From: an uncultured Acidobacteriota bacterium
GTDB lineage: Bacteria; Acidobacteriota; Polarisedimenticolia; J045
Assembly (NCBI GenBank): GCA_963702425.1
Contig: CAVPCQ010000006.1
Location: 288,001-352,000, forward strand
Direction of reading: 5' to 3'
DNA: 64,000 nt
Shown here: one piece after another, positions 3,084 through 35,592 of the stretch
Numbering within the stretch: the first letter of the stretch is position 1
Layout of the letters: the number at the start of each line of letters is the position of its first letter
The notes under the pieces: generated by a model
What the model saw: the letters and a program-made list of their open reading frames with translations, nothing else
What the model was told of the DNA's origin: nothing
Database searches by the model: none
Position numbers and translations under genes: made by a program

Positions 3084-4934
3084 TCAGCGCCCCAGCGTCC
3101 AGCCGCGCACGACCGCGTGCGTCGCTTCCAGGCGCGCGAGGACGTCGATCCACTGCTGGCGCTCGCCGGCGCGGTCGTGAGCCTGCCGCGCCGCGACCAG
3201 GTGCTCGCGTGCGCGGCTATACCGGCGCGCGTCCCCCTCGGCGAGCAGGCGCCCGGCGAGGTGCAGGTGGAGCCGCCCCGCGACGCGCGGGCTCCCCGCC
3301 TCGGCCACCGTGGCGGCCCGCGCCAGCGCCTCGGGCGAGGCCGCCAGCACGAACCCCGGCGAGTCCTCGAGGCGGTGCGCGAGCCGCTCGAGCTCGTCGG
3401 CGGCGAGGCAGACCTCGACGAACGCGGAAGCGTCCGACCCGGCCTCGGCGTGGTCGAGCGCACGACGGCGCCATTCGTGCCGCTCGTGCTCGTCGACGAC
3501 CTCGAGCAGACGCCGGTAGCTCGCCTCTCCCGGCTCGGCGAGGAACCCCTCCCACGCCGCTTCGATCGCCTCGCGCCGCCGGTCGAGCCGCGACAGCAGC
3601 GCGATCCGCAGGTCGTCGATCTCGGCCCGGGCGCTTCCGGTCGCGCGGCGGCGGCCCCGATCGACCCAGCGCAGCGCGTCCTGCAGCCGCCCCTCGTGCG
3701 ACAGCCGCGTCGCAGCGGCGAGGATCTCGGAGCCGTGCGCCCCCTCCGGGTCGCAGCTCTCGAGAAACGCATCGAGGTCGCTCCGGGCCTCCGCCACCTC
3801 GCGCAGGGCCGCGCGGACGCGCTGGGAGACGGGGTCGCTCCCGGCCTCGGCACCTTCCCCGAAGAGCGACCCCGAGCGCGTCGCCGAGCGTGCCTCGAGC
3901 ACGGGGCGCAGCAGCCCCTGCAGCGTCTCCAGCCCGATCGGCCCGAGCGTGTCGCGGGCCTCGAGGACCAGGCCGGCGAACGACCTCCCTCCGTCCTCCA
4001 TCAGCCAGCCGAAGATCTCGCGCGCCAGCTCCGGCCGGTCGCGTGCGGGCAGATCGGACCAGCGGCGGGACCAGTCGAAGAGGATATCGCGGGTCGCCAA
4101 CGCCAGAGCGCCGTCGCGGTCATCGGCTTCGTCGATCCGCTCCCAGGTCATCCACGCCGTCTCGAGCAGCAGCTCGAGCGCCAGCTCGGGCTGGCCGCCG
4201 ACGACCAGCCGCCCGACGGAGGCCGCGATCTCGCGCATGTCGGCCGCGACCCGAGGCGACTCCCAGCGCGTCAGCGGACGCCCCGGCCGCAGGGCCGCGC
4301 GTGCCGCCTGCCGGAACAGGCGCAGGTCGAGGTTGGCGGGATCGCCGGCGCGCGTCGTGAGCCGTGTCTCGAGCAGCGCGTCGGCGGCGGCGAGTTCGGC
4401 CAGGACCTCGCAGAGCTCGGCCTTGGGAAAGCCGAGCAGGCGGTCGCGCAAGACCCGCCACCGCTCGGCCCGCTCGGTGCGATCGACCTGGGCCTCGGAC
4501 GGGGCCTCTGGCCGCGGCGGCGGCACGAGCACCCCTTCCGCCTCCTCTCGCGCGGCCGGCACGGCGGCCGGAGTGCCCGGCCCTTCCGACTGCGGGGTCC
4601 CCCGCGACATCCCGGCGAGCCGCTCGACCGCCTCGGGGTCCCCGACCAGGGAGAGCAGCACCGCTCCGACGTGCCAGCAGGTCCCGCGGGGATAGGGGCA
4701 GGAACACTCCGCTTCGAGCTCTCCGTCGTGCAGCCGGATCACGCAGTGGTAGGGCACGTCCCGCGACCCGGCGACGTGCGCCCGCAGCGCGACCCCGTCG
4801 ACCCAGACCTCCTCGATCCGGCCGTCTTGCGCGTAGTCCGTGGCCCGCCGGGCGATGTGGTCCCGGCCCAGGAGCGCCGTGACGTCGGCCGCGGTCATCT
4901 GCTGGATGTGGCGGATCACCGGGTGGGACGTCAC
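3084..4934 (-). CDS. SWIM zinc-finger protein with helical/TPR-like C-terminus
   Basis: CSCPYPRGTCWHV (CxC-xn-CxH SWIM motif) preceded by the typical AHVAGS..PY segment. Confidence 0.8.
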   Translation of the reverse strand: MTSHPVIRHIQQMTAADVTALLGRDHIARRATDYAQDGRIEEVWVDGVALRAHVAGSRDVPYHCVIRLHDGELEAECSCPYPRGTCWHVGAVLLSLVGDPEAVERLAGMSRGTPQSEGPGTPAAVPAAREEAEGVLVPPPRPEAPSEAQVDRTERAERWRVLRDRLLGFPKAELCEVLAELAAADALLETRLTTRAGDPANLDLRLFRQAARAALRPGRPLTRWESPRVAADMREIAASVGRLVVGGQPELALELLLETAWMTWERIDEADDRDGALALATRDILFDWSRRWSDLPARDRPELAREIFGWLMEDGGRSFAGLVLEARDTLGPIGLETLQGLLRPVLEARSATRSGSLFGEGAEAGSDPVSQRVRAALREVAEARSDLDAFLESCDPEGAHGSEILAAATRLSHEGRLQDALRWVDRGRRRATGSARAEIDDLRIALLSRLDRRREAIEAAWEGFLAEPGEASYRRLLEVVDEHERHEWRRRALDHAEAGSDASAFVEVCLAADELERLAHRLEDSPGFVLAASPEALARAATVAEAGSPRVAGRLHLHLAGRLLAEGDARRYSRAREHLVAARQAHDRAGERQQWIDVLARLEATHAVVRGWTLGR

Positions 4935-11603: not shown

Positions 11604-12287
11604 ATGGGGGATCTTCATCTACTCGTCGTCGACGACGACGATCTCGTCGCATGGGCCCTGGAGAAGGCCGCCGCGCAGCGTCACGCCGAGGTCTGCGTCG
11701 CCGCCACCGGCTCGGCCGCGCTCGCCAGGGTGCGGTCGGGCAGCTATGACCTGGCGTTCGTCGACATCCACCTCCCGGATGCGAACGGTCTCGACCTGTT
11801 GATCGAGATCCGCGACCTTTCGCCCGCCACCAAGATCGTCGTCCTCAGCTCGGACGCCACCCCGGGAAACCGCGAGTGCGCCTTCGCCCGCGGCGCGTGG
11901 CAGTTCATCGAGAAGCCCTTCGACCTTGCCGAGATCGCCCAGGTGCTGGGCGACTGCACGGGCCCGCTCGAAGAACGACGGGACGGCAAGCGGACCTTCT
12001 GCCGGCTGCCGATCCGGATCGACGTCGTGGACCCCCCAGCCGACCTGGCCTGCGCCGCCCCCTGCTCGTTCGAAGCGACGGCGACCGACCTCAGCGACGG
12101 CGGCCTCCGGATCCACACCGCCTTCGACCTGCAGCCCGGCCAATTCGTCCGGCTCCACGCGACGAAGACCGACGACCCCTCCGCGGTGATGCTGCGGACC
12201 GCGCGGGACGCGCAGGTCGTGTGGGTCGCGCCGGGAAGCCAGTTCCGGCTGGCGGGCCTCGCCTACACGGCCGACGCGCGCCCCTGA
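11604..12287 (+). CDS. response regulator receiver fused to a PilZ (c-di-GMP-binding) domain
   Basis: LLVVDDD, DIHLPD and EKPF receiver motifs; RDGKR (RxxxR) and DLSDGG (DxSxxG) PilZ motifs. Confidence 0.85.
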   Translation: MGDLHLLVVDDDDLVAWALEKAAAQRHAEVCVAATGSAALARVRSGSYDLAFVDIHLPDANGLDLLIEIRDLSPATKIVVLSSDATPGNRECAFARGAWQFIEKPFDLAEIAQVLGDCTGPLEERRDGKRTFCRLPIRIDVVDPPADLACAAPCSFEATATDLSDGGLRIHTAFDLQPGQFVRLHATKTDDPSAVMLRTARDAQVVWVAPGSQFRLAGLAYTADARP

Positions 12288-12321
12288 GCGCTTCCGTCGC
12301 GGGCTCCCCGGATGGTCTCCG

Positions 12322-13447
12322 TTAGTCGCCGTGGCACTTCGCGCAGAGCGGCTTCTGCCGGCCCCCGGCGGTCGTTTCGTAGGGGTTCGGGATCCGGTAC
12401 GAACCCGAGGCGATCCCCTCCTGGCTCCACAGCTCGATCTTGAAGTCCCACCGCCCCGACGCCGGCCCCGACGACGCGTGCGCGCGGTGGCACGACAGGC
12501 AGGTCACCCTCGCGGCGGAAGGGGTGGGGCCGCGTCGAGGCAGTCGTCAGCCCGGCCGCCTCGTAGGGCACGAGCGGCTCGTAGGATTCGCTCGCCACGC
12601 CGTCGCTGAACCCCGTCCCGCGGTAGGCGTTGTAGGTCCGGATCATCTCGGGTTCGAGAACCTCGTCGATCGGATGCACGAAGCTCGAGCCGCTCGCCTC
12701 GTCGTGGTAGCGGCCGTGGCAGTTCCCGCACCACGCGCTCATCCCGGCGCGGTAGGCGGTGTGGTTCGCCGGCGCCTCCGGCGTGCCGTCGAGATCGATC
12801 CCTGACGCATCGGGGGCGTCGGTCGTGAACTGGAAGACGTGGTTGTTCGCGCGGCTCGCATTGGAGTCGCGTCCGTACAGCAGGCGGAAGTGACCGAACT
12901 TGCCGTGCGGATCGTGACACGACGTACAGCCCATGGCCGCGGAGGGATAGCTGCCGCCCGGAGCGTTCGCGTGGAGCGAGTCGGCCGCCAGTCCGAAGTC
13001 GATCGAGACGAGATTGTGGCCCGCCGCGTCCCCGCGGATCCAGTTGCTCGGGACGGCGCCGCCCGGGCCGTCGTTCAGGTTGTCTTCGGTGAGGAAGATG
13101 AACGGCCCGCCACCGAATACACGGCCCGGCATCGTCGGGGACTGGCCCCAGCTGTTGCCGTTGCCCGTGCCGTGGCAGTTGAGGCAGATGTCGGTGGCGT
13201 TCGCGCCCTTCAGGAGGTAGTTCGTCGGGTTGAAGGCCTGCTGGGGATCGTGCATGGTGTGGCACCCGCCGCACGCCGCCACGCCGCCGGAGTGGAAGGC
13301 CGACGCCGGCTGGCTCGTCAGAGCGGCGAACGCAAGGAGCCCGGCGAGCCCCGCCTGGCCGGCCCATCCGGCGCAGAGGCCGCGAGTCGCACGCCGGATC
13401 GCCGCGCGCCTGCCGTTGACCAGCCTCGTCCGATCCGATCGCGCCAT
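12322..13447 (-). CDS. OmcS-like hexaheme c-type cytochrome, shorter paralog (frameshift near 12520)
   Basis: Signal peptide then FHSGGVAACGGCHTMH; CLNCH, CTSCHDPHG, WCGNCH, then CLSCHRAHAS and LCAKCH in the next frame. Confidence 0.85.
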
Positions 13448-13472
13448 CGTGACTCTCCGTGCTTCGGGCCCG

Positions 13473-14875
<1,403 letters not shown>

Positions 14876-18248: not shown

Positions 18249-19520
18249 CTACCTCCTGAAGTCCTGGTGACAGGTGACGCAGAGGTCCATCTTCTTGTCC
18301 TGCCACGTGATGTACTTGTGCGCCGACCCGTGAGAGTCGTGGCAGCTCAGGCAATCGACACGCACGTTCTTGCTGCGCGGATCGACCACGTCCTTGCCGA
18401 TCGGGTGTGTCGAGTGTTCCTTCCAGTCGTGACAGGAGGCGCAGACGGCCGTCGAGTCCGCGGCGTTGAACAGCAGAACCGTGTTCGAACCGTGCGGTGC
18501 GTGGCAGGCGGAACAGTTCCCGTCGGCAACCGGTGCGTGCTTCGCGGTCGAGCCGAGCGCCTGTTTGACGGCGTCCGAGTGGCACGAGCCGCAGACCTTG
18601 ATCTCCGGACCCGCGAGCAGCTTCCCGGCCTTCGAGGCGTGGGGCCGGTGGCAATTGAGGCAGGCCTTCCGGTCGAGCACCGGCCAGTGGACGCGGTTCA
18701 GTCCCATGGTCTCGTTCACCAGCTCGCTGTGGCAACCGCGGCAGCCGTCGATCCCCGACTTCTTCACCTTGAGCGCGTCGGGCGAGGCGGCATCGAAGTG
18801 GCAGTTGGCGCACATCCGGTTGGCGACCGGCTGGTGGACGCTGGCCCAGAGGATCCCCTTCTGGCTCGAGCCGTGGGGATCGTGGCACGAGGCGCAGTCG
18901 GACTTGCCGACCGGGTAGTTCAGGTGCGCGGTCCGGAACGGCGCTGCGTCGGTCTTGTGGCACTCGACGCACAGCCCCGGGGTCGACTTCACCAGCAGAT
19001 GATCGGACTCCTTGGAACTGTGCGGGTTGTGGCAGCCGAGGCACGACTTGCTGACCGGGCCGTGCTTGAACGTCGCAGCCTCGACGGCCTTGCCAAGGTC
19101 GGCGTGACACTTGAAGCACAGGGCGGAACCGGAAGCCAGCAGTTGGTCCTTGCTCCCCGAGGCGTGGGGATCGTGGCACTTGGTGCACTGGCCGTCCACG
19201 GCGTCCTGGTGGGCGCTCTTCGCCCCCGCGGGGACGATGTCGGCGTGACAGGTCGCGCAGATCCGGTCCGGACTCTCCGCCAGCAGCTTGCCGTGCGAGG
19301 AAGCGTGCGGGCTGTGGCAGTCGCTGCACTCGCCGGCCCTGACCGGCGTGTGCACGAACGGCTGCTTCATCGTCTCCTGGAACTGCACGTGGCAGGACAG
19401 GCAGGCCTTGCCTTTCGCCCCGGGCTTCAGCTTGTACTTCGCCTCGTCGGTCTGACCCGCCGCCCCGGCCGCAGAGAGGGCCGCGAGGAGGACGAACGCG
19501 ACGATGAGTCGGGTCTTCAT
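18249..19520 (-). CDS. periplasmic multiheme cytochrome c, 16 CxxCH motifs
   Basis: Signal peptide; 16 CxxCH counted in repeating H-xn-CxxCH-xxH units. Confidence 0.95.
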   Translation of the reverse strand: MKTRLIVAFVLLAALSAAGAAGQTDEAKYKLKPGAKGKACLSCHVQFQETMKQPFVHTPVRAGECSDCHSPHASSHGKLLAESPDRICATCHADIVPAGAKSAHQDAVDGQCTKCHDPHASGSKDQLLASGSALCFKCHADLGKAVEAATFKHGPVSKSCLGCHNPHSSKESDHLLVKSTPGLCVECHKTDAAPFRTAHLNYPVGKSDCASCHDPHGSSQKGILWASVHQPVANRMCANCHFDAASPDALKVKKSGIDGCRGCHSELVNETMGLNRVHWPVLDRKACLNCHRPHASKAGKLLAGPEIKVCGSCHSDAVKQALGSTAKHAPVADGNCSACHAPHGSNTVLLFNAADSTAVCASCHDWKEHSTHPIGKDVVDPRSKNVRVDCLSCHDSHGSAHKYITWQDKKMDLCVTCHQDFRR

Positions 19521-19530
19521 GACTCGTCTC

Positions 19531-21504
19531 CTACCGCTTCGTCACGGTGTGGCACTCCTCGCAGGAGCCGCCGACGAAGGGAGCGTGGACCTCCGCCTGG
19601 AAGAGGTGCGGATCCTTCGAGGCGTGGGGGGCGTGGCAGCTGACGCAGTTCATCACCGCCGGGTCGATCGAGAGGTGCTTGTTGGCGAACGAAGCGTCCT
19701 TGACGTCGTGGCAGGTGGCGCAGAGCGTTCCCTGCGGCTCGGTGAGCAGCGCCGCCTGCGGACCCTCGTGGGGGCGGTGGCAGGTCTGGCAGTCGCTCTC
19801 GACGGGCGCGTGGACGGTGCCGGCCTTCATCGTCTCGGCGAGCGTCTTGTGGCACGACAGGCACAGGTCGGTGCCGGACGCGAGGAGCAGCTTCGGGAGC
19901 TTGGTCGCGTGGCCGCCGTGGCAGCCGGAGCACTGCCCGTCGGCGACCGGCTTGTGCTTGGCCCGGGCCGCCTTGACGGCATCGGTCACATCCGCGTGGC
20001 ACTCGCCGCAGACCTGGGTCTGGCCCGCCTTCATCAGGCCCGTGACGTTGGAAGCGTGGACCGCGTGGCAGGTGGCGCAGTCCCCGGCCTCGAACGGCGC
20101 GTGGACCGTCTGGCCCTCGGCCGGCTTCATCATCCCGCCGTGGCAGGTCGCGCAGAGGTCGGAGCCGGCCTTGACCAGCAGCTTCGGCTGCGCCGCGCCG
20201 TGAGCGGCGTGGCACGGCGAGCAGTTCCCGTTCATCACCGGCCCGTGGACGCTGGTCTTGGCGAAGTCGGCCTCGGCGTCGCTGTGGCAGCCGTAGCAGA
20301 CCCGGTCCTCGCGGTCGATCAGGAGGTGCGGCGCCTGCGAACCGTGGGGGTTGTGGCACGACGAGCACATCCCCTCCTGAAACGGCGTGTGCGCCACCTT
20401 GAAGGTCTCGGCCTTCTGCTTGCTGTGGCAGGGGTAGCAGAGCTCGGCGTCCTTGGCGAGCAGCAGCCCCTTCTCCTTCGCCGCGTGCGCACCGTGACAG
20501 GAGAGGCAGCCCTTCCCTTCGCCGACGGCCTTGTGCGCGACCGTCATCGACGCGGTCTGCTCCTTGTGACAGTCGGCGCAGAGCGCATTCCCGGACTTTC
20601 GGAGCAGGTCGGGAGCCTGCGAGGCGTGCGGATCGTGGCACGACGAGCACTTCCCGGCCGTGAACGGTGCGTGAACGATCTTCGCACCGCCGGTCAGCGT
20701 CGCTTCGTCGTGGCAGGTGGCACAGAGGGCCACGCCATCGCTCGTGACCGCGAACGGCTTGGCGTCCTTGGCGTCGGCGTGGCAAGCGCTACAGCTCCCC
20801 GACGCCACGGGATCGTGGGCGCTGACCTTCAGGAGACCCTTCTGCACCGAGGAGTGGGGGTCGTGGCAAAGCGAGCAGTCCGCGTTTTGAACCGGGTAGC
20901 CCTCGTGGGCCTTGCGGAACGGCTCCTTGCCGGCGTCGTGGCACTCGGCGCAGAGCTGCGCCTTCGGTTTGAGCAGCAGGTCCGGCTGGTCGGCGCTGTG
21001 GGAACCGTGGCACGCCGTGCAGCCCGTCGTCTCGAGCGGCGCGTGGACGACCGCCTGCTCGAACGGCTTGCGGTCGTGGCACTCGTAGCAGGCGGCCGCA
21101 CCCTGGGCCTTGAGCAGGTCCGCCCCCGCGCCGCCGTGCGGGTCGTGGCAGGCCGTGCACTTGGCCCGCTTCAGCGGGGTGTGCACGTGAGGCTTGCCGA
21201 GCCCCAGCGACTCCTTGGTGTGACACGATTCGCACAGGGCGTTCCCGTCCTTCTTGAGCAGCATCTTCGGAACCAGCCCGTGGCGGAGGTGGCAATCCTC
21301 GCACCGGCCTTCCTTCACGCCCGGGTGCGCGCTGGCGTAGGACTTCATCGTCTCGGCGAACTTCGAGTGGCAGTCGAGGCAACCCTTCTTCTCGACCTTC
21401 TTCTGGGCGAGCGCCGGCGGGGCGGAGAGCGCCGCCAACGTCAGGCCCGCGCAGAGCGCGAAAAGCGCGCGGGATGCCTTCGGGCCACGAGACTGAGGTC
21501 GCAT
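19531..21504 (-). CDS. periplasmic multiheme cytochrome c, 26 CxxCH motifs
   Basis: GGAGG SD before the ATG at 21504; signal peptide ending ALA; 26 CxxCH counted. Confidence 0.95.
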   Translation of the reverse strand: MRPQSRGPKASRALFALCAGLTLAALSAPPALAQKKVEKKGCLDCHSKFAETMKSYASAHPGVKEGRCEDCHLRHGLVPKMLLKKDGNALCESCHTKESLGLGKPHVHTPLKRAKCTACHDPHGGAGADLLKAQGAAACYECHDRKPFEQAVVHAPLETTGCTACHGSHSADQPDLLLKPKAQLCAECHDAGKEPFRKAHEGYPVQNADCSLCHDPHSSVQKGLLKVSAHDPVASGSCSACHADAKDAKPFAVTSDGVALCATCHDEATLTGGAKIVHAPFTAGKCSSCHDPHASQAPDLLRKSGNALCADCHKEQTASMTVAHKAVGEGKGCLSCHGAHAAKEKGLLLAKDAELCYPCHSKQKAETFKVAHTPFQEGMCSSCHNPHGSQAPHLLIDREDRVCYGCHSDAEADFAKTSVHGPVMNGNCSPCHAAHGAAQPKLLVKAGSDLCATCHGGMMKPAEGQTVHAPFEAGDCATCHAVHASNVTGLMKAGQTQVCGECHADVTDAVKAARAKHKPVADGQCSGCHGGHATKLPKLLLASGTDLCLSCHKTLAETMKAGTVHAPVESDCQTCHRPHEGPQAALLTEPQGTLCATCHDVKDASFANKHLSIDPAVMNCVSCHAPHASKDPHLFQAEVHAPFVGGSCEECHTVTKR

Positions 21505-21593
21505 ACGGTGCTCCACCTCCGAACCCCTGGATCGCGAGATGATACCGGGTTGAATGAAGCCGTGCAGCAAGTTTGTTAGTTTCGCTTGTAACT

Positions 21594-28944: not shown

Positions 28945-29012
28945 CTCGGCCTTCCCTGCCCGAAGGGCGCCGGCGGGCCACGGCTGCGAAGGGCGCGGGG
29001 ATCTTAGCAGAC

Positions 29013-29040
29013 GAGGGGGCTGGCTTGCGCCAGCCCCCTC
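29013..29040 (-). other. perfect 12-bp hairpin 3' of the omcS-like gene
   Basis: GAGGGGGCTGGC-GCAA-GCCAGCCCCCTC on the minus strand; no U-tract follows. Confidence 0.7.
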
Positions 29041-29071
29041 CAACCATCACGCGACGGGTGACTCCGTCACG

Positions 29072-30421
29072 CTAGTCCTGAGCGTGGCACTTGTTGCAGA
29101 GCACGCGGTCGTACGGACCGAAGTGCGTGGAGGCATCGCGGCCGTAGTACGCGACCTGCCAGTTGGCGATCGTCCGGCCGCGGGACTGGGCCGGGCCACG
29201 ACCGGTCGTGCCGATCGTCGGGTTGTCCGAACCGGGGTAGTTCCCGCCCTTGGTCATGAACTCGTAGCCGTAGTCCCAGCGCAGATCCTCGACGAAGCCG
29301 GAGGCGTGGGCGCGGTGGCAGGAGAGGCACATGACCTCGGCACCCGCTCCGGGGCCGCTGAGGAAGCTGTCGTTGATCTGGGCGTGCGACGCCAGCACCG
29401 CGATCGACGAAGTCGCCTCGGCGAACGGAACGAGGGTGCTGTAGGCCAGGGTGCTGTTGCCGTTGAGCCGGCCGGAGGAGACGTACGCGTTGTAGTTGGT
29501 CGCTTCGGAACCGGTCGACGAACCGACGGGGCCGACGCCGAGGGCCTCGCCCGTCGGGTGGTGCTCGTCGTCGCCGCCGGCGACGTTGAAGTCACCGTGG
29601 CAGGCGCCGCACCAGGTGCCCCAGTCGTTCGCCGAACCGGCGCCGCCGTAGGCCACGCGGGTCTGGTCGGTGTTCTCGTTGCGGTTGTAGGTCGACGGGG
29701 AGACCGCGACCGGGTAGCTGGTGTAGTTCGCACCAGCCGGCGGGTTCGGCGACGCCGGGGCCCACAGCAGGCGGTAGATGCCGACGGCGAGACCGGTCGG
29801 GGCGCCCTGGTTCTCCTGGCCGCCGCCGCCGTAGGTGTTGGCCTTCGGGACCGCGCCGTAGGAGCCGGAGGTGTAGATCGGCTCGCCGCTGCCCGTGCCG
29901 CCGAAGCCGCCGACGCCGTTGTTGTACAGCTGCCGGCCCTTGCCGTGCGGGTCGTGGCAGCTCTGGCAGCCGAGGACCGACGCGTCGAAGGTGCCGCCCG
30001 GGCCGTACGGCCGACGGGTGTCCGGCGCGAAGCCGAAGTCGGAGGCCACGATGCTGTGGCCGCGGGTGTAGCCGGGCTCGCTGTAGTTGGTCCCGCTGAG
30101 CACCCACGTGAAGTCGACCTTCAGCCAGCCGAAGTCGCCGCCCGGCGTCATCTGGACGGGCATCTTGGTCGTGGAGGCGTCGAGCGTGGCCACGTGGTAG
30201 CTGCTCGGTGCAGTGTCCACCGTGTTGCCGTGGCAGGACGGGTTGATGCAGGTCGAGCTGGCGTCACCGCCGAGCAGCAGGTTGCCGTCGGTCGAGGTCG
30301 CCTCGTGCATGCTGTGGCAGCCTTCGCACTCGGCAACGCCGCCGGAATGGAACGCGAACGCGTTCAGGCCGACTGCCGCGAGAAGCACCGCCAGTACTAC
30401 GATGATCCGGTTCCGCTTCAT
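29072..30421 (-). CDS. omcS: OmcS-family hexaheme c-type cytochrome (nanowire subunit candidate)
   Basis: Mature N-terminus FHSGGVAECEGCHSMH; PSSYH, QMTPGGDFGW, CHDPHGK, PSTYNR, TRVAYG, CLSCHRAHASGF, AYYGR and terminal LCNKCHAQD all recall Geobacter OmcS. Confidence 0.9.
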   Translation of the reverse strand: MKRNRIIVVLAVLLAAVGLNAFAFHSGGVAECEGCHSMHEATSTDGNLLLGGDASSTCINPSCHGNTVDTAPSSYHVATLDASTTKMPVQMTPGGDFGWLKVDFTWVLSGTNYSEPGYTRGHSIVASDFGFAPDTRRPYGPGGTFDASVLGCQSCHDPHGKGRQLYNNGVGGFGGTGSGEPIYTSGSYGAVPKANTYGGGGQENQGAPTGLAVGIYRLLWAPASPNPPAGANYTSYPVAVSPSTYNRNENTDQTRVAYGGAGSANDWGTWCGACHGDFNVAGGDDEHHPTGEALGVGPVGSSTGSEATNYNAYVSSGRLNGNSTLAYSTLVPFAEATSSIAVLASHAQINDSFLSGPGAGAEVMCLSCHRAHASGFVEDLRWDYGYEFMTKGGNYPGSDNPTIGTTGRGPAQSRGRTIANWQVAYYGRDASTHFGPYDRVLCNKCHAQD

Positions 30422-30437
30422 TTCTCACTCCTCCTTT

Positions 30438-30522
30438 CCCCCGGCAGCCCGGCCATCCTGACCATTCAGGACCCTCGGCTTTGTGTCCCCGTCTTGCGGC
30501 GGGTTTACCTTTCTCGGAGGGG
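30438..30522 (-). ncRNA. cyclic-di-GMP-I (GEMM-I) riboswitch in the omcS leader
   Basis: AAAGGTAAA-CCCGCC-GCAA-GACGGG-GACACAAAGCC..TCCTGA-ATGG-TCAGGA..GGCCGGGCTGCCG. Conserved GAC, AAAG and GNRA loop, covarying T-A pair, P1 CCTCCG/CGGGGG. Confidence 0.85.
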
Positions 30523-30623
30523 CGCTTGCGTTGGTTACATCTCGTACCCTGAAACCCCTGTTCTCTTCGTGTTCCGTTTCCTCTGCGGCACGCCGGCCTG
30601 CCGTCCCTCCTTCTCTCCCGGAG

Positions 30624-31589
30624 CTAGCCCCGCTCTCCGGAAGGCGAGAGCGTGAAGACCGCGACGCCGCGGTTCCGCAACTGCGATACGAACAACCGGC
30701 CGGCCGCCGAAATGGCCAGGTCGGCCGGCCTGATCATCTTTCCATCGGCGGTCCCGTACCCGCCGAACTCGGTGACGAACTGCAGGCCGCTGTCGAAGAC
30801 GTTGACCGAGCTGCGCAGCATGTCCGCGACGTAGATGTTCCCGGCGGCGTCGGTGGCGACCGAGCCGGCCAGGTTGAACTTGCCCGGCCGCGAGCCGGCC
30901 TCGCCGAAGCGGCGGACGGCGCCGTCGGGCGCCATCACGTAGACGCCGAAGTCGATCGGCACGCTGACGATCACGTTCCCCTGCGGGTCGACCGCCATCC
31001 CGGCGAAGTCGGCGTTCTTGCGGATCTCCTTCTCGTCCGGCAGGGACTCGGTGAAGTCCTTGACCTGCAGCAGGCCGGCGCGCTTGTTCAGCACCAGGAC
31101 CTGCAGCCGGTTCGACGCTCCGAGGTAGAACTTGCCGCCGGCGTAGATCACCGTGCTGGGCGAGAAGTCCTTCAGCCCATCCGGGATCCCCGCCGGCAGC
31201 AGCTTCTCCTGCGGTACGCCGCGGTAGTCGCAGCGCAGCAGGAAGAAGTCGCCGCCGCCCGGGCGCCGGATCGGTTCGTAGCCGAGGAAGTAGAGGTCGC
31301 CGGTCTCGTCGACCGCGACGTCGTAGATCGTCCCGGCTGCCGGGTCGAGCGGGAAGGAGTAGGTTTCCATCCCGGTCGGCCCGAAGACCCTGAGGAAGCC
31401 CTCGCTCAGGATGAAGGCCTCTTCCCGCACGGCGTCCAGCCGGACCCGCACGCCCATGAACGGCACCGTCCCCGTGAAGTCGGCGAGGTTGTACTCGAAG
31501 CGGGGGGCGATCTCCGCCGCGGGCGCGACGCCGACCGCAGCGACCAGCGTCGCTGCCAGAGCCAGAACCGTGTGGGGGACGCTCCTCAT
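30624..31589 (-). CDS. NHL-repeat exported protein
   Basis: Signal peptide; FGEAGSRPGKFN..VATDAAGNIYVAD and FGGYGTADGKMIRPADLAI NHL repeats. Confidence 0.85.
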   Translation of the reverse strand: MRSVPHTVLALAATLVAAVGVAPAAEIAPRFEYNLADFTGTVPFMGVRVRLDAVREEAFILSEGFLRVFGPTGMETYSFPLDPAAGTIYDVAVDETGDLYFLGYEPIRRPGGGDFFLLRCDYRGVPQEKLLPAGIPDGLKDFSPSTVIYAGGKFYLGASNRLQVLVLNKRAGLLQVKDFTESLPDEKEIRKNADFAGMAVDPQGNVIVSVPIDFGVYVMAPDGAVRRFGEAGSRPGKFNLAGSVATDAAGNIYVADMLRSSVNVFDSGLQFVTEFGGYGTADGKMIRPADLAISAAGRLFVSQLRNRGVAVFTLSPSGERG

Positions 31590-31604
31590 CGCGGCTTACT
31601 GAAG

Positions 31605-31620
31605 AGCAATACACGTGCCA
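31605..31620 (-). promoter_or_regulatory. sigma54 (-24/-12) promoter of the cytochrome operon
   Basis: TGGCAC-GTGTA-TTGCT, a perfect consensus on the minus strand. Confidence 0.85.
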
Positions 31621-31694
31621 GCCGTCGGAGCGGTGGAAGACGAACATTCACGGGCGGTTCCGATTGTGTAAGCGTGACGGCGGGCGCGCCATCT

Positions 31695-31734
31695 GGTGAA
31701 AAGCCCATAAACCAACTGGTAATTTCCCCGATCG
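31695..31734 (-). promoter_or_regulatory. candidate tandem enhancer (UAS) boxes
   Basis: Minus strand CGATCGGGGAAATTACC-N11-GGGCTTTTCACC, about 75-115 bp upstream of the sigma54 site. Confidence 0.5.
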
Positions 31735-34767: not shown

Positions 34768-35592
34768 TCAGCGCGTCGCCACGGCGGCCCCGGCCACGGA
34801 CATCGCGGACGCCGGCTGCGGCGCGGGTCGTCCGAGCGCCTGCTGGACGTCCCAGCGCGGGTGGCCGATGTCGTGGCACCCGAGGCACAGCGCCCGCCGG
34901 CTCTCCGTCGTCGTCAGGGCGCGGTGCGAACCGTAGACGCGGTGGCAGCTGGCGCAGCTCACGCGACCCTCGACGAGCCGGGCCGACGGGCCGATCTCTG
35001 CGGCGGCGCGGTAGACGCCGCCGCGCGTCGGCCGCGCCGAGCCGTAGTCGATGAGCGGGTGCGAGTGGCCGACCTCGATCTGCGGAGGCATCCCCGGGAA
35101 GTCGGGGACCAGTTCGGCCCCGCCGTGACAGGCCAGGCAGCGTTTCGAGAAGTCGTCGACCTCCGGCTCCGTCCCGTCCAGGCCGGCCGGCGCGGGTCCG
35201 GCGAGCCGAGGCCCGCCGTGCACGGTGTCGGGGTACTGCGCGTGCGGCGTGTCCCACGCGCCGCTGGCCGCGCGGTGGCAGCGCGCACAGAGCTCGGGGA
35301 CGGTCACCCGCAGGAAGAAATCGGCGTCGGCGGCCTCGCGCCCTGCAGGGCCGTGCCCGGCGTGGCAGGTCAGGCACGTGACGCGCCCCGCGTCGAGCGG
35401 CAGCCCGGCTGCATCGCCGGAGACTCGACCGAGCACAGGCACGTCGATCGGGTGGGTGGGCATGTCCGACTGGGGGGCGCGCACGTGGCAGGTGACGCAG
35501 AGCTCGCTGCCGTCCGACGCGAGAGCGGGAAGCGGGGCGAGGGCCAGGGCGCACAGCGCCCCGGCGACCGCCACGCGGCCAAGGGTGGCCAT
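34768..35592 (-). CDS. exported hexaheme c-type cytochrome
   Basis: Signal peptide; CVTCH, CLTCH, CARCH, CLACH, CASCH, CLGCH. Confidence 0.9.
   Translation of the reverse strand: MATLGRVAVAGALCALALAPLPALASDGSELCVTCHVRAPQSDMPTHPIDVPVLGRVSGDAAGLPLDAGRVTCLTCHAGHGPAGREAADADFFLRVTVPELCARCHRAASGAWDTPHAQYPDTVHGGPRLAGPAPAGLDGTEPEVDDFSKRCLACHGGAELVPDFPGMPPQIEVGHSHPLIDYGSARPTRGGVYRAAAEIGPSARLVEGRVSCASCHRVYGSHRALTTTESRRALCLGCHDIGHPRWDVQQALGRPAPQPASAMSVAGAAVATR

Follow-up and report, generated by a model that had tools for sequence, protein, structure and literature searches.

OmcS filaments are the best-understood microbial nanowires, but nearly all work on how they are regulated comes from Geobacter, in which riboswitches for cGAMP are predominant. 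A GEMM element before omcS in Geobacter sulfurreducens has been in print since 2007 (PMC1950547). Specificity in these aptamers turns on base 20 of the Vibrio cholerae Vc2 numbering. Wild-type Vc2, which has G20, discriminates against cGAMP, and its G20A variant binds both ligands; as a rule, A20 admits cGAMP and often c-di-GMP too, and G20 excludes cGAMP (PMC6140456). The OmcST riboswitch of G. sulfurreducens is described as sensitive to both cGAMP and c-di-GMP (PMC6456294), and the premise of an earlier note on the DNA studied here, that the Geobacter omcS riboswitches are cGAMP-sensing, was thus too simple.

Judged by title, the matches listed for omcS, riboswitch, and c-di-GMP together are Geobacter studies or broad reviews. 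Among the matches listed there is no paper that joins OmcS, Acidobacteriota, and a riboswitch, and nothing relevant on c-di-GMP-I aptamers combined with anti-Shine-Dalgarno sequences. Here we analyze an omcS leader in a 64-kb stretch of acidobacterial DNA (the window). We read it as a predicted canonical class-I cyclic-di-GMP riboswitch (GEMM-I) that would act as a translational ON switch, and we put the probability of this reading at roughly 0.7.

The omcS locus

The window encodes an OmcS homologue of 449 amino acids on the minus strand (29072..30421), with an AUG start codon at 30421-30419, a signal peptide, five CXXCH motifs, and one CX4CH motif. Residues 24-449 align with residues 1-407 of the OmcS filament subunit (PDB 6ef8) with an E value of 9.8e-84. 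Full-length similarity to 6ef8 and six heme-binding motifs place the protein in the OmcS family, here from sequence alone. The genome contains one full-length omcS copy.

A gene for an NHL-repeat β-propeller lies upstream of omcS (30624..31589, minus strand), and a YNCE-like β-propeller gene lies downstream. An OmcS profile scan of one public genome per species returned 80 omcS loci, and tblastn across these loci showed that the NHL gene before omcS is conserved. Of the 80 loci, 63 contain an NHL homologue, as do 22 of the 27 that bear a riboswitch; in most cases it is upstream of omcS and on the same strand. The exceptions are loci L033, L068, L087, L074, L069, and L076, where it lies downstream of omcS, and L057 and L060, where it is on the opposite strand. 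NHL-omcS is a conserved gene pair across many phyla, also at riboswitch-free loci.

Multiheme cytochrome genes surround omcS and encode proteins of 686 amino acids with 26 CXXCH motifs, 430 with 16, 274 with 6, and 418 with 4. These genes are placed at 18252-21591, 34768-35592, and 12266-13519, all on the minus strand. The N-terminal part of the 418-residue product resembles OmcS residues 14-162 with 42% identity. No GEMM-I was found before the other multiheme cytochrome genes of the window. From its predicted gene content, the window looks like an extracellular-electron-transfer island. Two open reading frames of 1252 and 923 amino acids that overlap the region were treated as high-GC artifacts; they have no Pfam match, and their translations are Arg-rich.

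Identification of the aptamer

The gap between the NHL gene and omcS contains a full GEMM-I aptamer, as the earlier note had proposed, and covariance models place it where the note did. RF01051 matches 30519..30440 on the minus strand with 63.1 bits (gathering score 35; E = 1e-11) and covers model positions 1-87 of 87. RF03167 (c-di-GMP-I-GGC) scores 62.1 bits at the same place against a cut-off of 59 and wins the Rfam clan competition by E value; its match at 30518..30439 (minus strand, E = 3e-12) is the single Rfam match across the whole window. There is nothing surprising in kind here, and any Rfam-based annotation would call the aptamer.

RF01051, RF03167, and RNAalifold together define an aptamer at 30439..30519 (minus strand) that consists of P1, P2 with a GCAA tetraloop, and P3. 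The 5' strand of P1, CCUCCG, is located at 30520-30515 and the 3' strand, CGGGGG, at 30438..30443, both on the minus strand; the P1 pairs correspond to columns 15-19 with 102-106 of an alignment of 28 omcS-linked sequences. P2 of the window copy has a C.A mismatch beside the tetraloop. RNAalifold recovered 22 pairs from the 28 sequences, eight of which have compensatory changes on both sides, P2 and P3 included. The gap from the end of the aptamer to the omcS AUG is 17 nt.

The genome scanned is 5.1 Mb in 42 contigs (91% complete, 5.85% contamination, 71% G+C). RF01051 and RF03167, each run genome-wide, gave no second GEMM-I match, and c-di-GMP-II (RF01786) was not found in this 91% complete assembly.

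Alignment of four genomes of the genus shows a conserved block 15-36 nt upstream of the aptamer (30533..30554, minus strand). The block reads TTTCA.GG.ACGAGATG.AA.C in the four genomes, a pattern that may mark a promoter or leader element. A scan of 29000-31700 found no sigma-70-like promoter. Three terminator-like matches occur in the same interval, none of them placed to affect the omcS leader; one lies inside the aptamer on the opposite strand.

Metatranscriptome contigs from three runs (96-98% alike) carry the riboswitch whole (X16) or in part (X17 and X18). Together they span 30336-30714 and reach into the 3' end of the NHL gene; their strand and ends are not readable, and DNA is a possible source. 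The RNA runs matched 4-12% of the words of the stretch, with no run reaching half, and the uncovered parts are uninformative. These contigs weakly suggest that the riboswitch region is transcribed, perhaps by read-through from the NHL gene into the omcS leader.

Ligand-contact bases

The model alignment places G at position 20 (30509), the base that reads the first ligand base, A at position 47 (30482), and C at position 92 (30444), the Watson-Crick partner of the second ligand base, all on the minus strand. In the 28-sequence alignment, position 20 is column 26 and holds G in 23 leaders and A in 5, and positions 47 (column 53) and 92 (column 101) are A and C, respectively, in 28 of 28. The earlier note had also reported G20 and C92, and the model and the alignment bear out both identities. 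It placed G20 one nucleotide too far toward the 3' end, on the second G of AAAGG. The conclusion stands because both bases are G.

The register of position 20 is fixed by the spacing and by covariation in the adjoining helix. Six unpaired bases separate the G of P1 (30515) from pair 21:46 (G:C), which is followed by pair 22:45 (U:A). Among the 28 omcS-linked riboswitches, pair 22:45 is U-A in 15, C-G in 9, U-G in 3, and broken in 1. Pair 21:46 is flipped to C-G, as judged by eye, in three unrelated GEMM-I matches (L010, L014, and L015).

The contact bases predicted from this alignment, G20/A47/C92, are the canonical c-di-GMP signature. The A20 that characterizes GEMM-Ib cGAMP riboswitches is G in the window. 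Because of G20 and C92, the Vc2 rule for G20 (PMC6140456) predicts c-di-GMP rather than cGAMP as the ligand, which agrees with the earlier note.

The label that Rfam assigns raises a different reading, in which the aptamer belongs to c-di-GMP-I-GGC, an orphan variant class whose ligand is unknown. We take GGC in this name to stand for bases 20, 47, and 92. The 62.1-bit score passes the class cut-off, and the same label falls on 15 of the 28 omcS-linked matches. Position 47, however, corresponds to the conserved G at RF03167 model position 37, and we rejected the label because the window, like 28 of 28 aligned relatives, has A there. RF01051 also scores 1 bit higher and stands 28 bits over its own cut-off. 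The label seems to be due to shared helix sequence and not to the defining base, and membership in the orphan class is very improbable.

Predicted switching mechanism

The Shine-Dalgarno (SD) region of omcS, GGAGGAGUG, is located at 30426..30434 on the minus strand, and duplex and fold predictions identify it as the partner of an anti-SD sequence. The earlier note recognized that CCTCC in the 5' strand of P1 is complementary to the SD sequence GGAGG, and the positions of the two elements are 30520-30516 and 30434-30430, respectively. The 5' strand of P1 thus doubles as the anti-SD, and with its upstream bases the feature extends over 30515..30524 (minus strand). The duplex of 30524-30516 with the SD has a calculated energy of -12.1 kcal/mol and consists of 5 bp, one C.A mismatch, and 3 bp. 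Folds of 128 and 156 nt computed without ligand pair GGAGG with a probability of 0.91-0.99. The P1 state is 2.3-3.3 kcal/mol less stable than the SD-paired state, and forcing P1 costs 3.1 kcal/mol. In these fold models, the gap between the two states is small enough for ligand binding to overcome. When the leader is taken as 219 nt, from the NHL stop codon onward, the predicted fold argues against sequestration of the SD, which is then mostly unpaired, with a pairing probability of 0.01-0.33.

We infer the following mechanism. Without ligand, the 5' strand of P1 and the bases that precede it, GCGCCCCUCC, would mask the ribosome-binding site GGAGGAGUG by base pairing. Binding of c-di-GMP would close P1 by pairing CCUCCG with CGGGGG. 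Closed P1 would lock the anti-SD in the aptamer and free the SD, and OmcS would be translated. The direction of the predicted switch follows from this geometry. Closing P1 can only free the SD because the SD lies outside P1 and is paired with the 5' strand of P1, which makes the predicted device a translational ON switch.

An OFF switch or a transcriptional switch would require a different architecture. Terminators are used by other GEMM-I riboswitches, and one Nitrospirota omcS leader (L036:2341-2500) appears by eye to have a hairpin and a U-tract after the aptamer. Against such a design in the window, the 17 nt between the aptamer and the AUG contain no U-tract or terminator and are too short for one, and the SD sits outside P1 in a helix with its 5' strand. 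We give an OFF or transcriptional switch hardly any credence for the window. In L036 itself, where pair 21:46 is flipped to C-G, the predicted elements suggest control at transcription instead of an anti-SD.

Covariation of the anti-SD helix across omcS leaders

The proposed translational ON switch makes use of two mutually exclusive helices, and omcS leaders from other genomes were compared for both. The alignment set contains 28 leaders; it excludes the second copy in L079 and also L036, whose platform differs and resembles a terminator. The anti-SD helix was counted with our own anchored script, with the register set by best fit, because MAFFT did not align the SD region across the variable linkers.

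In the 28 leaders, the 5' strand of P1 plus 2-4 preceding bases can pair with the SD, and the helix shows exchanges on either strand. Examples of anti-SD/SD pairs are CUCCUCC/GGAGGAG, AUCCUCC/GGAGGAU, CAUCCUCC/GGAGGAUG, and CUUCC/GGAAG. Helix position 7 is A-U in 14 leaders, C-G in 7, U-G in 1, G-U in 1, and broken in 5, and position 8 has five pair types among the 28. The helix of L054 (Desulfuromonadaceae) is extended by ACGC:GCGU beyond a bulge. Cognate duplexes have a mean energy of -11.05 kcal/mol compared to -9.53 kcal/mol (sd 0.33) for permuted ones, and 0 of 10,000 permutations were as low in a test that ignores relatedness. Four or more anti-SD:SD pairs are present in 25 of the 28 ligand-free minimum-energy folds, and the cost of forcing P1 ranges from 0 to 11.5 kcal/mol. 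The alternative helix expected of a translational ON switch is found in these leaders: it is exclusive with P1 and is kept by covariation. The covariation, the permutations, and the folds strongly support the anti-SD idea put forward in the earlier note.

The same comparison bears on whether the window copy could be a decaying or constitutive relic, in which P1 closes even when ligand is absent, or binding has been lost, and omcS is expressed constitutively. Two of the four genus genomes fit such a description. In L016 and L012 the 5' strand is CCCCCC, the SD helix is poor, and a perfect CCCCCG:CGGGGG P1 is already present in the minimum-energy fold, which also counts against the ON-switch reading. 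The riboswitch at L012:1501-1580 (genome G003) scores only 48.2 bits, its pair 22:45 is U.U, and its base 48 is G; on these sequence features, the G003 copy may be decaying. The C.A mismatch in P2 is a blemish in the window copy itself. On the other hand, the window copy scores 63 bits with all contact bases intact, both alternative helices are retained in the window and in its nearest relative, and covariation accompanies the conservation of the riboswitch-omcS unit across phyla. We consider it quite unlikely that the window copy is a relic, and a ligand-responsive ON switch remains the preferred reading.

Distribution of the riboswitch-omcS unit

A GEMM-I clan match is present at 27 of the 80 omcS loci. 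The 28 matches divide into 15 labeled RF03167 and 13 labeled RF01051. The next open reading frame is OmcS-like and lies 14-82 nt downstream in 28 of 28 leaders (the 27 loci plus the G003 relative, with the second L079 copy left out). The riboswitch hosts include Acidobacteriota, Nitrospirota, several Thermodesulfobacteriota families, Desulfuromonadales/Geobacter, a Deferrimicrobium metagenome-assembled genome (MAG), and others, with MAG labels that may be loose. No GEMM-I match at the gathering score was found at the remaining 53 of the 80 loci, which include those of Geomonas, Citrifermentans, and Anaeromyxobacter; many of these still have the NHL gene.

Closer to the window, three of the four further genomes in its genus have an orthologous riboswitch, and so does a second genus of the family; these matches sit between the NHL gene and omcS. 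A GEMM-I match occurs in 11 of 41 genomes of relatives, most of which have none. A Desulfuromonadales MAG contains identical riboswitch leaders 1.8 kb apart (L079:2320-2404 and 4168-4252), each before an omcS-like gene. This pair is a tandem duplication of the riboswitch-omcS unit.

Position 20 varies within the omcS-linked set. G20 is present in 23 of 28 leaders, and the five A20 leaders (L025, L054, L059, L079, and L082) comprise three from Desulfuromonadales, one from a Deferrimicrobium MAG, and one from a Nitrospirae MAG. The L019 (G20) and L025 (A20) omcS leaders are near-identical. On an unrooted tree of 29 OmcS proteins, A20 needs at least three changes, and the window falls inside a well-supported, G20-only clade of nine. 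The tree cuts across taxonomy, with Acidobacteriota, Nitrospirota, and Thermodesulfobacteriota interleaved. Because the OmcS tree departs from taxonomy, the sequences suggest that the riboswitch-omcS cassette spread by horizontal transfer.

The earlier note held that the nanowire gene had kept riboswitch control and now listens to a different messenger. That account presumes a Geobacter-like ancestor and fits poorly with an acidobacterial host, a G20 majority, a G20-only clade around the window, and repeated changes to A20.

Candidate cGAMP synthases in the genome

The genome was searched for Hypr-type GGDEF proteins, a check that the earlier note had suggested and that does not come out clean. 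According to the eLife paper, Hypr proteins are marked by Ser348 plus a GGDEF motif; Arg at the cross-dimer site is associated with increased output of c-di-GMP, and Tyr, Ser, Ala, or Gln there with a product that is mainly cGAMP (PMC6456294). The genome has eight GGDEF-domain matches, three of which have Ser at the position of GacA Ser348 together with the GGDEF motif. A GAF-GGDEF protein on contig C20 has the Hypr domain of Geobacter GacA (PDB 6d9m) as its best match with 160 bits, well ahead of the diguanylate cyclases, and the next best match scores 106 bits. It contains GHMAGS, GGDEF and not GGEEF, and N-A-R aligned to N-Y-R of 6d9m, so that Ala occupies the cross-dimer site. A Hypr enzyme is expected to have Ser or Thr at position 348; with Ser348, GGDEF, and a non-Arg cross-dimer residue, the C20 protein is a candidate cGAMP synthase. 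Its orthologues in two sister genomes are 97-99% identical. Contigs C6 (7061-7528) and C42 (5165-5632), both outside the window, carry near-identical 708-residue open reading frames with a Ser-type GGDEF. These two have Ser and GGDEF but N-R-R, with Arg at the cross-dimer site. The C6/C42 pair may reflect a genuine gene duplication; alternatively, as contamination of the MAG is put at 5.85%, it may be an artifact of assembly or binning. A c-di-GMP toolkit is also present and consists of canonical Asp-type Rec-GGDEF proteins, an HD-GYP-GAF-GGDEF protein, and a PilZ domain. Judging from these proteins, the host lineage may well make cGAMP, though its single GEMM-I carries G20.

A cell of this kind could in principle use the omcS leader as its cGAMP receptor. 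Despite its G20, the aptamer would then respond to 3',3'-cGAMP, perhaps alongside c-di-GMP, with a Hypr GGDEF as the source of the cGAMP. The three Ser-type GGDEF proteins, the closeness of the C20 protein to GacA with Ala at its cross-dimer site, the conservation of that protein in sister genomes, and the presence of only one GEMM-I in the genome all fit this scheme. It conflicts with the known role of G20 as a c-di-GMP determinant and with the rejection of cGAMP by wild-type Vc2 (PMC6140456), and other receptors could serve cGAMP. The occurrence of candidate synthases across genomes gives it little help. The same query detected a Ser-type GGDEF in 5 of 5 A20 genomes but also in 5 of 10 other G20 genomes, three of which are closely related to that of the window; these counts come from incomplete MAGs. 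A Ser-type GGDEF does not predict the riboswitch base because it also occurs in this half of the other G20 genomes. We regard a response of the window aptamer to cGAMP as unlikely, and c-di-GMP remains the predicted ligand.

Discussion

The comparative data can be joined into one tentative picture, which we judge somewhat less probable than its negation. A cassette of the NHL gene, a GEMM-I ON switch, and omcS would cross phyla, and position 20 would have flipped between G and A at least three times. The host of the window is probably cGAMP-capable, yet its sole GEMM-I keeps G20, which would tie nanowires to c-di-GMP and insulate them from cGAMP. Control by cGAMP would then be derived.

If this is true, nanowires tied to c-di-GMP reverse the Geobacter wiring, and cGAMP control of extracellular electron transfer is lineage-specific and not the rule. 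The predicted switch suggests that c-di-GMP, the universal biofilm messenger, gates omcS translation in Acidobacteriota and several other sediment lineages. Natural, near-identical G20 and A20 aptamers such as those of L019 and L025 are possible specificity controls for biosensor design, and G20/A20 pairs could help to predict when uncultured bacteria make nanowires. The new points are modest and come from comparison: omcS leaders in many phyla share the anti-SD design, G20 is the common state, G and A have replaced each other repeatedly at position 20, and the switch co-occurs with a GacA-like protein.

The C20 GAF-GGDEF protein resembles the Hypr proteins GacA and GacB in its Ser348, its GGDEF motif, and its non-Arg cross-dimer residue, with 6d9m as the closest PDB entry. 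Its GAF-GGDEF architecture is that of Myxococcus xanthus GacB (10.1101/600031). The C20 protein is a candidate by sequence, encoded on another contig than omcS in a MAG with the contamination given above. The c-di-GMP-I-GGC aptamers (RF03167) are very similar to the window aptamer in their helix sequences and differ from it at position 47, where the window has A and not G.

The closest described class is c-di-GMP-I (GEMM-I, RF01051), represented by Vc2 of V. cholerae. The window aptamer shares with it the three-helix fold, the G20/A47/C92 bases, a GNRA-type tetraloop on P2, and a score far above the cut-off. It differs from the Vc2-type example in its acidobacterial host, its omcS target, its anti-SD in the 5' strand of P1 at 17 nt from the AUG, and the C.A mismatch in P2. 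The Geobacter GEMM-Ib riboswitches of pgcA (Gs1761) and omcS-omcT resemble the window element in their fold, in their extracellular cytochrome targets, and in ON logic, which is predicted for the window. The pgcA riboswitch acts through a terminator (PMC6456294), unlike the predicted anti-SD switch of the window. The Geobacter GEMM-Ib riboswitches have A20 and the window has G20. The Desulfuromonadales omcS leaders L054, L059, and L079 have the same anti-SD design as the window.
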